Positions 37,148 to 41,861 of a DNA stretch of 64,000 nt are shown in pieces. The stretch comes from Candidatus Poseidoniaceae archaeon. GTDB taxonomy: Archaea > Thermoplasmatota > Poseidoniia > Poseidoniales > Poseidoniaceae. Numbering within the stretch: position 1 is the first letter of the stretch; the number at the start of each line of letters is the position of its first letter. A program made the position numbers and the translations under genes. The notes below the pieces were generated by a model, which saw only the letters and a program-made list of their open reading frames with translations, was not told the origin of the DNA and did no database searches. Where the stretch lies: assembly GCA_965662895.1 (NCBI GenBank), contig CBFIJH010000005.1, positions 1 through 64,000 of the forward strand, written 5' to 3'.

Positions 37148-39964
37148 ATGGCGAGAGGGGCATTTGCGGTAAGTTGCGTTCTTCTGATGCTGACATCTCT
37201 TGTGGTGGTACCAGCGAGTTCCTACGATAGCAACGGCGTCCAGGCTTCAGAACAGAGTCTGAGTATCCTTCCATCAAGTCCAACCGAAGGTGGGTCAGTC
37301 ACAGTTTCTTTGGCCTTGCAAAATACAAACTCTCAGCTTGCTGCAAACGTCGAGTATTCTTTTTACGCAAATGGTGTCTCAGATAATACGAAGCTCTGGG
37401 CTTCGACAGTGAACATTCCTGCAGATAATGTATCAATAGTTTCCACAACTTGGGATGGCTTACCAGTTGGAGAAAACAAAGTGTTTGTGACCTACTCATA
37501 CAACAATGGGCCTGAACACCAATTTTGGAAGTCGTTTACTGTACAAGGTCTTCCAAGTTTGCACATCGTTGAATCGACAATGACTCCTTCGTCTGGTATA
37601 CACGCCGGAGATACAATCGAACTCAACACCAAAGTTGCAAACCTTGGAAGCGTTGATGCATCCGCGTCGAATCTTGGAATCAATTATCCTGGTTCGATAA
37701 GCGACGTTGAACTCCCAACCGATGCACTTGCAGCTGGTGCTGAAGTTTGGGTCAATACAATATTTATCGCTCCATCAACCGGATCTTATGACATCATCTT
37801 GACGCCTGACGTGAACGATGTAATTCTCGAATCCTCTGAACAGGGCAAAGAATCAACCGTATCGCTCATCGTCGAGCCTCGAATGGATTTGTCACATGTG
37901 GGCGACTTGAGTATCGTGTCCACAGAAGGTTCCTTGATTGGCCCTTGGACAATCTCTGGCGTTCTTGCACGGGAATCTGGTGAAGAGACTTCCACGGTTC
38001 CCATGGTATTGGAATTTAGGGAAGGTGCATCTCTTGTTCGTCCCTTGCAAATCTTCGAAGTTGACATTTCGGGCACGGGCTACAGTACAGAGGCATGGAC
38101 CACCAGCATCACAAGCACAGACATCGCAGGATTGCCAACAGGGCAATACACGCTCGCAGCAGTTATCGATCCATACGATTCCGGAACGTTCATACAAGAA
38201 AATACAGACAACGACGAACTCATAACAACATTTTCTTTACCCGAAATACCTGATGTTTTCATCGATCCTCTTGCTTTGGCAAACCGGACGACTGTTGGCG
38301 CCGGGGATTTTGTTGATTGGTCGATGACGGCAACAAACACAGGTGACGTTGCCGTTTCTGGGACGTTTGTCTACACGTGGGAAGAACAGAGTTTTGAATC
38401 GCCATTGATTCTTCTCAATCCTGGACAGATTTACACCTACACGACTTCACATGGTACCAACAGTGGCCAACACACTGCAATTTTGGATGCGGAATGGAAA
38501 GCATCGACGGGGTCGTACGATCGTGTGCCTACAAACAGCGTTGCAACAGGCGAAGTCTTGGTTGAAGCAAATTTGCAATTGGATTGGGACAGCGACTCGA
38601 TGGTACTGCTCGATGAGGGTGGAGAAGCTGCTACATTCCCTCTCGAATCTGGTGAGAAATACACCATGACACTCGATGTTCGATCGACTCGCGGCACAGG
38701 TGATGTGACGTTCACATGCAAGAACAGTCAAACCACATGGGGGACGACGGATGTCAGCATTGAGAATCCCGGGGATCGCGCTGAAATCTCGTGCACATTC
38801 ACTGCATCAGGAAAGATGTCGATTTTACAACTTGTACCATCCGACCCAATGGTTGCGAACACATACGAGCGCTCTTTTTCCACTGCGCTCATCGAAGGCG
38901 ATGGTGCAAACGGTGGAACCTCCAACGGTACAGGAACTGCTCTTCTCATGTTTGTCGGCGCACTTGCATTGATTGGTGTACTCGTAGGAGCGATTCTTCT
39001 CACTCGTGAGAGAGAAGAAGAGGTTGAACGTGACATTTTCAATTATTGCCCTGCTTGCGATGGAGAACTTGAAGGTGATGAGAACCGTTGCCCACATTGT
39101 TCCTTCAATCTTCGAAAAGCTCGCTCGCAATTCCACGACTGTCATGAGTGTGGTGAATCCATACCCGATCTTATGGAAAATTGTGCATACTGTGGTGCTG
39201 AACAAGATGTCTCTTCCTTCTTTGAACGCAGAGAACGACGTGTTCGTGAGGTTCCGGAGGAGAAAGAGCTCGTCTCACTGCCTGAGGAAGATGAGAATGA
39301 GATTGTTACCGGTACTGAGGACTTTGCGACTGCGGTCAAAGAATTTGGCTTTGACGAATCAAATCTCGAAGATGAGTGGGATGAGAATGTTGTAGCAGCA
39401 GAAGAAGAAGTTACAGCAGCCTATGATTCACGCAATGCAGACGAAATAGCGATGGAAGACATGACTGAAGAAGAGATTGAGGCCATGCAAAACCAAATTG
39501 TTACGACCTTGAAGACGATTGAAGAGTCGTTTGAAGGGCACAATTTGGATGCGTTCTTGCCATCAAAGGAAGAGATGAAATCGCTCAAGGATGATGGTAA
39601 AGACAAAGATGGAGCTGCATGGACAACACTGTCGGCAAGTGATGCGGAAATTCGCGGTGATCTGTACGAATTAACCGGTGAAGAAGGTGTGATGCCGGGT
39701 GAGAAGGTGAATGTTGGAATGGGGATTACAGACAGTTCCCTTGCAGGAAATGAAATCAAAGAAGCCAGTGCAGACTTTGCATTTGAAGACGACACTGAGT
39801 TGCCACTTACTGTTGAAGACGGTGACAAAGCAGTCACAAAACCACGTCGTCGACCTCGCCGAAAGCGAGAACCTGAAGTTCAAACAGCGGATTGTGGCGC
39901 ATGTGGCGCTGTCATCCCCGCCGATGCCAAAGAATGCGCAACGTGCGGTGCAAAGTTCGAATGA
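37148..39964 (+). CDS. CARDB-domain surface protein, TM, cytoplasmic double Zn ribbon, acidic region and terminal Zn ribbon
   Basis: VANLGSVDA, IDPY...QENTDND; CPAC/CPHC/CHEC/CAYC; CGAC...CATC. Confidence 0.85.
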   Translation: MARGAFAVSCVLLMLTSLVVVPASSYDSNGVQASEQSLSILPSSPTEGGSVTVSLALQNTNSQLAANVEYSFYANGVSDNTKLWASTVNIPADNVSIVSTTWDGLPVGENKVFVTYSYNNGPEHQFWKSFTVQGLPSLHIVESTMTPSSGIHAGDTIELNTKVANLGSVDASASNLGINYPGSISDVELPTDALAAGAEVWVNTIFIAPSTGSYDIILTPDVNDVILESSEQGKESTVSLIVEPRMDLSHVGDLSIVSTEGSLIGPWTISGVLARESGEETSTVPMVLEFREGASLVRPLQIFEVDISGTGYSTEAWTTSITSTDIAGLPTGQYTLAAVIDPYDSGTFIQENTDNDELITTFSLPEIPDVFIDPLALANRTTVGAGDFVDWSMTATNTGDVAVSGTFVYTWEEQSFESPLILLNPGQIYTYTTSHGTNSGQHTAILDAEWKASTGSYDRVPTNSVATGEVLVEANLQLDWDSDSMVLLDEGGEAATFPLESGEKYTMTLDVRSTRGTGDVTFTCKNSQTTWGTTDVSIENPGDRAEISCTFTASGKMSILQLVPSDPMVANTYERSFSTALIEGDGANGGTSNGTGTALLMFVGALALIGVLVGAILLTREREEEVERDIFNYCPACDGELEGDENRCPHCSFNLRKARSQFHDCHECGESIPDLMENCAYCGAEQDVSSFFERRERRVREVPEEKELVSLPEEDENEIVTGTEDFATAVKEFGFDESNLEDEWDENVVAAEEEVTAAYDSRNADEIAMEDMTEEEIEAMQNQIVTTLKTIEESFEGHNLDAFLPSKEEMKSLKDDGKDKDGAAWTTLSASDAEIRGDLYELTGEEGVMPGEKVNVGMGITDSSLAGNEIKEASADFAFEDDTELPLTVEDGDKAVTKPRRRPRRKREPEVQTADCGACGAVIPADAKECATCGAKFE

Positions 39965-39965
39965 T

Positions 39966-40037
39966 TGTTGCCTGTCAGCACTCATAGGGTTCGTCATCGC
40001 TTGCGCTCGGAGTCAATGTTGCGTCATTCAGGCAACA
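39966..40037 (-). ncRNA. box C/D guide sRNA, predicted to direct Cm34 of elongator pre-tRNA-Met (sR-tMet-like)
   Basis: minus strand: 9-bp terminal stem, C AUGACGC, D' CCGA, GC-GCAA-GC hairpin, C' AUGACGA, D CUGA; D guide ACCCUAUGAGUG is complementary to CACUCAUAGGGU; TTCAAA box upstream. Confidence 0.85.
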
Positions 40038-40104
40038 TCAATGAATCGCATCCTTCGTTTGAACGCTTCCCTGTGATGGGGTGATTTTCATATCATTGAG
40101 TTGA

Positions 40105-40674
40105 TTGGCTGTGTTCATGCAGCAGAGGTTATTGACGGTCTTTGTGGCCCTCTCTATGCTGCTCTTATCTGCATCGGGTTGTATTGGGTTGCTCCAAGGA
40201 AGAGAGTACATGGAGCATCTTCGCGGTGATGTTCAACAGGCTACATCGATTGAGACGACGGTTGTCGAGCATGCATTTACCAACGCTGAAATAAATGTTG
40301 AATGGAACGAGAGGTTTACGGTCGATTCCGAAGTTACAAAGATTGGCGTTTATTTCAAAACTGAGATGGCAGGCGAAATTATTCGAGAAATCTTCCCTGA
40401 TTTCTTTGACTTGCGGGAAATAAAAGTTGAGATAAAAGATCCCACTGGTGCACTGAAATACAATGCTACTCATGGAACAACAAAAACTGCCCCATACGCT
40501 TTGATTGAACCCGAGTTTGATGGGGAGTTCGTCTCCGGTGAATGGAACATCAACATCGTTGGTACCGGAGGAGGCGTCCTTACTGAGCAAGACAATTTCT
40601 TGGTCAGTGTTGATGTGACAAGAACGTGCACATTGTATCCACAAGATGACGGTCGTTGTGTTGTTGACAACTAG
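40105..40674 (+). CDS. putative lipoprotein (start probably ATG 40117)
   Basis: hydrophobic N-terminus ending ASGC lipobox-like; P/PPC-like 'VEIKDPTG...GEWNI'. Confidence 0.7.
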   Translation: MAVFMQQRLLTVFVALSMLLLSASGCIGLLQGREYMEHLRGDVQQATSIETTVVEHAFTNAEINVEWNERFTVDSEVTKIGVYFKTEMAGEIIREIFPDFFDLREIKVEIKDPTGALKYNATHGTTKTAPYALIEPEFDGEFVSGEWNINIVGTGGGVLTEQDNFLVSVDVTRTCTLYPQDDGRCVVDN

Positions 40675-41861
40675 ACCAATGATTCGCTGCAAGCGTATCG
40701 TCGACTGCAATTTCTGCACTTGCCTTCGCGTTCATGATTTCGTTTGGCACCGCCTTCGACCATCAATCGTTGTACTTCTATGATGCTTTCACGAAGATGC
40801 TGCTTTTCGTGTGTATCCCAGAAGACCTGATGGATGTCTTCTTCACCATAGCGTAAGATTCCATAGGGTGGAGATTTTTTGGTGTTGGTCTCGACAAGAG
40901 AGATGTAAGCGAGCAGTTGCAATCGATGTGAGGGATACGGTTTTTTTGGTATTTTACCAGTTTTCTGCTCAACCGGAATAAATTCACCATCAATGATGAC
41001 GATTTGATCGGGTCTCCCGCGCAGACCTGATACACGATCGATGAGAAGGTCGCTGGTTTGGTCATCATCAGAATAAACGATTTCAGCTCCACTTTCAAGT
41101 CCAACCTTTTCTCTGTTCATAGCCATCTCATTTTCCGCTTTGAGCGAATTTTGAAGTTGCCAAGTAGCAAAAAATGTCCATATAAAAGCAATGAGTATGA
41201 GAATAAAGCCAGCCTGGCTTCGATCTTGTGCTGCAGCGAGTGCAATGGCGTGGATGCCTATGACGATTGTCGATAAGAGGAGACCTGCTTCTGTTTTTCC
41301 TGCTGAAAACCATCCTCCGAGAAAACCGATAGGACTCCAAGTTGGCTCCATGCCAGTTGAAGCAAAGCGTTGTTTCATTTCTCGAATTTCTTTCAAATCA
41401 TGTTCGAAATTGAGCCAGTTTCGCCAAGGTAAAACGATTGACAGAATCGCAGCGATGAGAAACGAAACAGACCACATCGAGAGGATTTTTGCCAACTCAA
41501 TTGGGGAATTCATTACATCATCGATGTAAACAAACGCAACAGCGTCGATTGAAAAGGCGATGATAATTCCAAACCACCATGACCAAATGAGAAGTGAGCG
41601 ACGCATTCGAATTAACGCCTCTTGGAATTCATTCATATCCTTGTGAATCTCTTTGTGCTTCTCAACACCTTTTTCCACGGCTTCTCCAACTCCAGAGGTA
41701 CCTTCCTTTGCGAGTTGCCACGAGAGAGGACAGTACATGAATCGCTCCAGATCACTGGCACTTACAGAGAGCGGCGTTTCAGAATCGTCGATGTAATAGC
41801 CTTCTGGGCCGGGTTTTGCATCCGAAAAATCGGCCCCCATGTTTTCATCTCTAGCCCACAT
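40671..41861 (-). CDS. solo Cas4-like PD-(D/E)xK Fe-S nuclease with internal four-TM insertion
   Basis: SASDLERFMYCP, G...H, GRPD, VEQKTG, QLLAY, CRNCSRRYAC; four hydrophobic helices at about aa 88-237. Confidence 0.85.
   Translation of the reverse strand: MWARDENMGADFSDAKPGPEGYYIDDSETPLSVSASDLERFMYCPLSWQLAKEGTSGVGEAVEKGVEKHKEIHKDMNEFQEALIRMRRSLLIWSWWFGIIIAFSIDAVAFVYIDDVMNSPIELAKILSMWSVSFLIAAILSIVLPWRNWLNFEHDLKEIREMKQRFASTGMEPTWSPIGFLGGWFSAGKTEAGLLLSTIVIGIHAIALAAAQDRSQAGFILILIAFIWTFFATWQLQNSLKAENEMAMNREKVGLESGAEIVYSDDDQTSDLLIDRVSGLRGRPDQIVIIDGEFIPVEQKTGKIPKKPYPSHRLQLLAYISLVETNTKKSPPYGILRYGEEDIHQVFWDTHEKQHLRESIIEVQRLMVEGGAKRNHEREGKCRNCSRRYACSESLV

Follow-up and report, generated by a model that had tools for sequence, protein, structure and literature searches.

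The first 64,000 nt of contig CBFIJH010000005.1 (hereafter the window), from the Candidatus Poseidoniaceae archaeon assembly GCA_965662895.1, very probably contain the gene for a trans-acting archaeal box C/D small RNA (sRNA) that would guide methylation of the wobble cytidine, C34, of the unspliced elongator pre-tRNA-Met, as a counterpart of the RNAs sR-tMet and sR49 of other archaea. This reading draws on features that can be observed directly, namely the anatomy of the gene, its complementarity to the target in the proper register, its conservation, the covariation of its stems and the presence of the corresponding protein genes. The window is contig C5 of a genome (G000) of 26 contigs and 1.86 Mb, with 48% G+C and rated 92% complete. 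An earlier examination of the letters and their open reading frames (ORFs), the sequence-only reading, had described an unannotated guide RNA gene at this place, and indeed no Rfam family matched at its gathering score in the whole window. For an uncultured lineage of marine archaea, the locus contributes a placed non-coding gene and the prediction that elongator tRNA-Met carries a 2′-O-methylated C34 (Cm34); the literature that we searched yielded no description of C/D sRNAs from marine group II (MGII)/Poseidoniales.

Architecture of the sRNA gene and its probable protein partners

The gene occupies the minus strand at 39966–40037 when a 9-bp terminal stem is counted in full, with a core at 39969–40034, limits that derive from the sequence itself, from the Rfam model RF02163 and from a lineage model, R1, described below. 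Read from its 5′ end, it begins with the first strand of the terminal stem (UGUUGCCUG, 40037–40029) and a bulged A, followed by box C (AUGACGC, 40027–40021), which departs from the consensus RUGAUGA by U5 to C and A7 to C. A 10-nt D′ spacer (AACAUUGACU, 40020–40011), probably an orphan without a guiding role, separates it from box D′ (CCGA, 40010–40007). Next comes an 8-nt mini-hairpin (GCGCAAGC, that is GC-GCAA-GC, 40006–39999) with a GNRA loop, which closes the C′/D′ kink-turn and whose helix (helix 4) is 100% paired, then a single G and box C′ (AUGACGA, 39997–39991), the latter identified from the sequence, the Rfam alignment and the alignment of relatives. The 12-nt D guide (ACCCUAUGAGUG, 39990–39979), which pairs with pre-tRNA-Met, leads to box D (CUGA, 39978–39975) and to the second strand of the stem (CAGGCAACA, 39974–39966). 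The bulged A and the single G were read directly, and boxes D′ and D were both read directly and aligned. Only the GCCUG/CAGGC part of the 9-bp stem is conserved (GCCUG at 40033–40029, with compensatory changes), and therefore the mature RNA is probably nearer to 66 nt than to 72 nt.

A kink-turn consists of a canonical stem, a 3-nt bulge, tandem sheared G.A/A.G pairs, a non-canonical pair and then a G-C pair. Set against this textbook layout, both box pairs, C/D and C′/D′, can be read as kink-turns, each with a stem, a 3-nt bulge (AAU and GAU, respectively), tandem G.A-A.G, a C.U or C.C pair and a G-C pair; the sole departure is the C that replaces the usual U after the tandem G.A pairs. The sequence-only reading had given this anatomy, which agrees with the sequence letter for letter, as well as the 3-nt bulges at both box pairs. 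It had also drawn attention to a U-to-C change shared by the two C boxes; the change is there, but it is not peculiar to this locus, for UGACGA is also found in the Rfam sR-tMet consensus and in haloarchaeal and MGII copies. The arrangement of the boxes exceeds chance: a relaxed regular expression for C...D′...C′...D that required 4 bp or more of terminal stem found two matches in the 1.86-Mb genome and none in each of five shuffled genomes, and without the rule on the stem it found 14, against 0–3 per shuffled genome.

The gene appears to have a promoter of its own, as the TATA-like box TTCAAA, already pointed out in the sequence-only reading, is present on the same strand at 40058–40063, 24 nt upstream of the conserved GCCUG. 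In relatives of the genus the motif GGGAAGYGTTCAAAC is kept at a fixed 25 nt from CCUG. We also inspected by eye the 55 nt upstream of each of 38 tRNA genes (the 39th is cut by a contig end): an exact TTCAAA ends 22–26 nt before the mature 5′ end in five of them, the target tRNA-Met included, and six further genes have TTGAAA, TTCATA or TTTATA at the same place. A scan for promoters and terminators of bacterial type was set aside as not applicable to archaea.

The genome also encodes the proteins of a C/D ribonucleoprotein (RNP). Fibrillarin (PF01269, 152 bits) and Nop5 (PF01798, 113 bits) are encoded side by side at C3:58841-60031, and L7Ae (PF01248, 73 bits) at C15:1224-1472. Four features of archaeal box C/D RNAs as a general class are accordingly present, namely a C/D kink-turn and its stem, a C′/D′ kink-turn, a guide of about 12 nt and the protein genes.

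The D guide and its probable target, the intron-containing pre-tRNA-Met

No tRNA gene was found within the window. A search of the genome with aragorn, allowing for introns, identified three tRNA genes with a CAU anticodon, and only the one at C9:60223-60353, which scores 56 bits with the Rfam tRNA model, carries an intron; this is 55 nt long and inserted after position 37 (37/38; C9:60260-60314, or 238–292 of locus L153). The CAU tRNA of contig C6 reads as an initiator (A1-U72, GGG/CCC anticodon stem), and that of contig C4 would, by elimination, be of the tRNA-Ile2 type.

The sequence-only reading had proposed that the D guide spans the junction between the 5′ exon and the intron in an elongator pre-tRNA-Met, and the C9 gene provides exactly such a precursor, although with a shorter duplex than anticipated. 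The perfect 12-nt target (CACUCAUAGGGU) is absent except as the antisense of the sRNA gene, whereas the real precursor reads GACUCAUAGGGC, of which the central 10 of 12 positions pair with the guide. Its junction context is ...GGACUCAUA|GGGCAG..., and the guide part CCCUAUGAGU forms with ACUCAUA|GGG ten contiguous Watson-Crick pairs, comprising A31 to A37 and the intron bases G+1 to G+3, bordered by G-G and C-A mismatches. The guide G at 39983, the fifth nucleotide from box D, faces C34, so that the N+5 rule falls on the C of the CAU anticodon, as had been predicted. A search for the exact 12-mer CACTCATAGGGT with up to one mismatch returned, besides the antisense of the sRNA gene, only a protein-coding stretch that resembles an HD-domain motif, which was discarded as a target.

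We compared the guide with a set of 41 stable RNAs (8,192 nt), made up of the 39 tRNA genes of the genome together with the 23S and 16S rRNAs of two congeners (G041 and G006, respectively). When only Watson-Crick pairs were counted, the site on pre-tRNA-Met was the top match in the whole set. The duplex has a predicted energy of -17.6 kcal/mol, equalled on that precursor by 2 of 1000 shuffled guides. Besides its copy in the tRNA gene, the target 10-mer has two further copies in the genome, one of them antisense to the sRNA gene.

Drawn by hand, the precursor folds into a canonical helix-bulge-helix-bulge-helix (hBHBh′) splicing motif, with the anticodon stem UCGGA/UCCGA, the central helix CUCA/UGAG, the bulges UA|G and AC|A and the h′ helix GGCA/UGUC. 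The target of the guide overlaps the central helix, the 5′ bulge and the start of h′; binding of the guide and the splicing fold are therefore mutually exclusive.

By analogy with the class, transcription, RNP assembly and methyl transfer would proceed as follows. TTCAAA, the gene's own promoter, would drive minus-strand synthesis of an RNA of about 66–72 nt. Each of the two kink-turns, the terminal C/D one and the internal C′/D′ one, would be bound by L7Ae, after which Nop5 and fibrillarin would join to complete the RNP. The 12-nt D guide would pair through 10 bp with A31-A37 and intron bases +1 to +3 (GGG) of the C9-encoded precursor, so that the guide base in fifth position from box D faces the wobble C34, the nucleotide that fibrillarin would 2′-O-methylate. 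Since three of the ten pairs involve intron bases and the target overlaps the bulge-helix-bulge (BHB), methylation would have to precede splicing and would need an alternative fold of the precursor.

The same overlap would also suit an RNP whose chief role is that of a splicing chaperone or timer, holding the anticodon and the junction open and delaying formation of the BHB, with methylation as a secondary matter. The 10-nt target does run through the 4-bp central helix (CUCA) and the 5′ bulge into the beginning of h′, and the pre-tRNA-Met, intron included, is 98–100% identical across the genus, which hints at constraints beyond splicing. Nevertheless, C34 sits exactly at N+5 wherever the guide is found, and for the Haloferax counterpart the pertinent sections of PMC4033218 and PMC6601510 document Cm34 chemically; a role chiefly in splicing is hence very unlikely, and guided methylation of C34 remains our preferred reading.

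Two further observations concern the intron. In addition to the 3′ CUGAG of the BHB, it has in its middle a motif (GUAUGACG in G000, GAUGAGCG in other genera) that complements the anticodon loop; this suggests alternative folds of the precursor. The possibility that the intron itself carries a box C/D element (AUGACG ... CUGA) found no support, as Rfam reports only a tRNA at the locus, neither a flanking stem nor a 3-nt bulge geometry could be drawn, and CUGAG is the BHB strand that pairs with CUCA.

Conservation, family relationships and loss

The sRNA is not confined to the window. RF02163 (sR-tMet) was run on G000 and 30 relatives, and 29 of these 31 genomes gave a match at E≤1. We aligned 28 of the 30 loci listed, using the window for its own locus and leaving out the two weakest, L031 and L032, which do not have the guide. 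In this alignment the boxes and the motif CCCU.UGA are invariant, as are the UGA and the G of box C (28/28) and the internal boxes C′ and D′ (28/28), and the guide core CCCUAUGAG is nearly so. Of the cells at paired positions, 99.6% are paired, and two stem pairs have changed on both sides (UA to CG in two sequences and GC to CG in four). A second alignment, enlarged by 18 further sequences from other genera, was fitted to the model and thus leans towards the structure; there, 99.7% of the cells are paired, and four of the nine pairs are double-changed, a number that 4 of 500 shuffles equalled. Changes on both sides affect 17 cells, equalled by none of 500.

The lineage model R1 was built from these sRNA sequences and run, with matches accepted at E≤1e-5, on 151 genomes drawn from the order. 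It matched in 135 of them, including 50 of the 58 of high quality, and in 20 of 22 genera, always as a single copy save for one genome with two. Scores range from 48 to 89 bits across the order; the window, with the only copy in its genome, scores 88.2 bits at 39969–40034. The sRNAs of family f3 and the loci titled Thalassarchaeaceae or Poseidoniales have in common a GCCUC/GAGGC stem, the box AAUGACGA and the end GAGUACCGA.

Farther afield, a search of all species genomes with the pattern TGANGNNCCCTATGAGNNCNGA returned at least 120 stretches. Among the 80 matches listed, 75 are archaeal records, from Halobacteria, Methanosarcinales, Methanotrichales, Methanobacteriales, Methanomassiliicoccales, Thermococcus, Hydrothermarchaeales, marine group III (MGIII), Poseidoniales/Thalassarchaeaceae and, in a single record, Bathyarchaeia; the other five are bacterial. 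The guide motif, again among the matches listed, is therefore spread over haloarchaea, methanogens, Thermococcales, Methanomassiliicoccales, MGII, MGIII and Bathyarchaeia.

In a permissive scan of Rfam, the locus matched the full RF02163 model at 39971–40032 with 31.1 bits (E 0.003; gathering score, 50) and RF01126 (sR41, from Pyrococcus) with 24.6 bits (gathering score, 54). Such sub-threshold scores mean that standard annotation misses the sRNA, and the finding shows the sR-tMet model of Rfam to be too narrow. With sR-tMet the gene shares its being encoded separately from the target; the order C, spacer, D′, internal hairpin, C′, guide and D; the guide core CCCUAUGAGUG; C and C′ boxes of the UGACGA type; a CCGA D′ box; and, as predicted target, C34 of an intron-containing elongator pre-tRNA-Met with pairing into the intron. 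It differs in its 8-nt GC-GNRA-GC mini-hairpin, where the Rfam consensus has a stem-loop about 15 nt longer (the alignment elides 15 positions of the consensus there, against 4 of the locus), in its box D (CUGA, against CCGA in the haloarchaeal copies) and in its host, a marine metagenome-assembled genome of 48% G+C instead of a haloarchaeon. The sR49/sR41 RNAs of Pyrococcus and Thermococcus have the guide core CCCUAUGAG before box D and the same predicted target, but they show canonical UGAUGA/UGAAGA boxes and do not have the internal hairpin; the Pyrococcus RNA goes by the name sR49 in PMC2584109, and in Rfam this guide is found in model RF01126 (sR41). The window's sRNA would thus work like sR-tMet and sR49 while lying outside the current boundary of the Rfam family.

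The precedent is well established in other archaea, so that the locus reveals no new mechanism and will not surprise a specialist. Grosjean et al. (2008, PMC2584109, section 13) assign Cm34 of the intron-containing tRNA-Met to a separately encoded C/D sRNA, predicted to be sR49 in Pyrococcus, report 18 archaeal candidates and point out that, because intron bases take part in the pairing, methylation must precede splicing. A table of the review PMC4033218 lists sR-tMet for Cm34 in haloarchaea, in agreement with the sequence-only reading, which had invoked the Haloferax RNA; for sR-tMet, this review and PMC6601510 cite Joardar et al. (2011, RNA Biol 8:782). A similar case, as outlined in PMC2584109 and PMC11408192, is the euryarchaeal guide in the intron of pre-tRNA-Trp (Cm34, Um39), where a C/D RNP also acts on the wobble C of an intron-containing precursor, with intron bases in the pairing and methylation before splicing; that guide, however, sits in the intron of its own target, whereas the tRNA-Met guide described here is a separate gene on another contig. 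By the description of Vitali and Kiss (PMC6601510), the human SNORD97 and SCARNA97 are likewise box C/D guides for 2′-O-methylation of C34 of elongator tRNA-Met(CAT), although they are eukaryotic, hosted in introns and pair with the anticodon stem-loop; the comparison is by description only.

In two genera R1 found no sRNA, namely g14 of family f1 (0/5 genomes) and g18 of family f3 (0/7). Their pre-tRNA-Met genes (L196-L204) are present and retain the intron, which starts with GGA instead of GGG in the nine genes read (9/9; the tenth genome offers only a 37-nt fragment). By contrast, GGACUCAUA|GGG is invariant in the pre-tRNA-Met genes of 25 of 25 relatives; of these GGG-start genomes 24 have the sRNA, and it was not found in the remaining one, G029. 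A search in g14/g18 for a guide that might have co-varied (pattern CCTATGAG, up to one mismatch) gave one doubtful match across five genomes. The g14 intron carries CUAUGAG, able to form a hairpin with the CUCAUAG of the anticodon loop and junction.

It is conceivable, and we offer it as a tentative and rather doubtful proposal, that pairing with the sRNA is the reason why tRNA-Met of this order retains both its intron and the initial GGG, since Cm34 could be installed only on the unspliced precursor; in the genus of the window and several others the ancestral D′ guide, aimed at helix 69 of the 23S rRNA, would have been freed from selection and drift, leaving a half-guide with a D′ kink-turn that serves only as a scaffold. 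The finding also provides a clean comparative system for the persistence of some tRNA introns and for the loss of one arm in dual guides, and the decay of the half-guide together with the loss of the sRNA along with a change in the intron make neat comparative material.

Several points weigh against a functional guide for C34 as we describe it. The duplex has 10 bp and not 12, a length that 18 of 1000 shuffled guides (1.8%) also reach, as counted in one genome alone. The GGG that starts the intron can also be accounted for by its part in the h′ helix of the intron itself, and hence its conservation is not unique evidence for the guide. The association of the loss of the sRNA with GGA rests on two independent lineages, that is, on only two evolutionary events, and is therefore suggestive rather than statistical. 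The RF02163 score is below the gathering threshold not only here (31.1 vs. 50 bits) but in all 31 genomes (0/31 above the cut-off; best relative, 44 bits). The fold energy of the single sequence is unremarkable (z = -1.31), which is to be expected since C/D RNAs are scaffolded by proteins. Finally, the material from RNA runs consists of contigs, not reads: those of two runs (X1 and X2) cover only 39700–39933, within the neighbouring protein gene, and are no evidence either way, and a third run (X3) gave no match.

The last three points could be taken to mean that the locus is a chance motif or a decayed relic, not expressed or not functional. This is extremely unlikely in view of its presence as a single copy in 135 of 151 genomes, its invariant boxes and guide, the compensatory changes in its stem, the conserved promoter box and the failure of five shuffled genomes to produce even one such box arrangement with a stem. 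On this comparative evidence, the locus can be regarded as a genuine, conserved, single-copy box C/D guide RNA.

The D′ half of the RNA and surrounding features

The second arm of the RNA has a different history. The sequence-only reading had tentatively given the D′ guide a site at the 3′ junction of the same precursor; this did not hold. The best duplex between the D′ spacer and pre-tRNA-Met falls in the T arm at -4.0 kcal/mol, a value that 916 of 1000 shuffled guides matched. A loose scan of the genome with the D′ 10-mer gave 928 matches and was too loose to inform. The spacer differs at most positions among congeners (AACAUUGACU, AACGACAACU, AAUGACGACU, AAUGUUCACU, GAAACCGGA and others), being hypervariable while the remainder of the sRNA is nearly invariant within the genus; the intron is near-identical across the genus while the spacer varies, and the spacer therefore does not track the intron. 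The D′ half probably has no target and would serve only as the structural second kink-turn.

This may not always have been so. In genera g13, g15, g2, g6 and g7 of the same order the D′ spacer is AAGAGGGUCA, which is also found outside the order, including in a Methanomassiliicoccaceae record (loci L015, L021, L023, L028; L211-L214; L045, L047, L106 and L111). This sequence forms 10 bp, in the N+5 register, with UGACCCUCUU of the 23S rRNA, at about 1894–1903 of the G041 molecule (L188), a congener used in this test as a proxy for the organism of the window; we take the site to be the helix-69 region. The likeliest interpretation of these sequences is an ancestral dual guide, for Cm34 of tRNA-Met and for a Cm of the 23S rRNA, whose rRNA arm would have been lost in the genus of the window and in g11, g12, g16 and g17. 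A replacement guide for helix 69 (GAGGGTCA followed by CYGA) was not found elsewhere in the genome.

The window's own spacer, AACAUUGACU, might still direct modification at a second site, for instance in the 16S or 23S rRNA of the organism, neither of whose genes was found in the assembly, so that its own rRNA lay outside the target scan. That the RNA type can be dual is indicated by the 10-bp match of AAGAGGGUCA, the spacer of other genera and orders, to the congener 23S rRNA. In addition, the D′ spacer of congener G013 (AAGAAUGACU, L029) has a 10-bp match (nine Watson-Crick pairs and one G-U) to GGUCAUUCUU of the 23S rRNA, at about 1422–1431 of the G041 molecule (near 1426), equalled by 1 of 300 shuffles; this may be a chance match after five guides were tested, or a recently lost target. 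Against a second target, the best match of the window's spacer in the set of 41 stable RNAs, with the congener 23S and 16S rRNAs and its own tRNAs, is 8 bp, a value equalled by 158 of 1000 shuffles, and at the G013 site it has two mismatches and only 5 contiguous pairs. Its length of 10 nt is below the usual 12, and its variability between congeneric species, in an RNA otherwise almost invariant, is the pattern of relaxed selection. We therefore consider a present-day dual guide improbable and favour a single guide, for tRNA-Met, with a D′ half that would have only a structural role.

Among the 37 genomes of the genus (G000 included), a match to 23S rRNA was obtained in three and to 16S rRNA in five. 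In G041 the 16S and 23S genes are on different contigs (C2 and C9), and the rRNA genes appear to be unlinked. A contig from run X4 (record 5, 4,199 nt), from another organism, matches the window at 39969–40001 only, that is, over the conserved C′ box and guide; its loosely similar flank has a AAGAGGGUCAG-CCGA D′ arm, by which it can be read as a co-occurring relative with the dual-guide form.

The sRNA gene lies between two protein-coding genes. On the plus strand, a gene (37148–39964) whose 938-aa product contains CARDB and several zinc-ribbon domains converges on it, its stop codon (39962–39964) abutting the 3′ end of the sRNA. Upstream, on the same strand as the sRNA, 40671–41861 encodes a 396-aa protein resembling a Cas4-like PD-(D/E)XK nuclease (TIGR00372, 54 bits; cut-off, 65). 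The two ORFs within 40105–40719, one on each strand, gave no match in Pfam or NCBIfam.

The relaxed expression used for the box arrangement also found a second candidate for a box C/D sRNA, outside the window, on the plus strand of G000 at C8:9855-9920, with a CCCGC/GCGGG stem and the order UGAUGA - GUGCUCAAAGC - CGAC ... UGAAGA - CUGAUGGGCGAA - CUGA. Its guide motif AUGAUGGGCG also adjoins the tRNA-Met guide in loci from Methanobacteriales and Hydrothermarchaeales.

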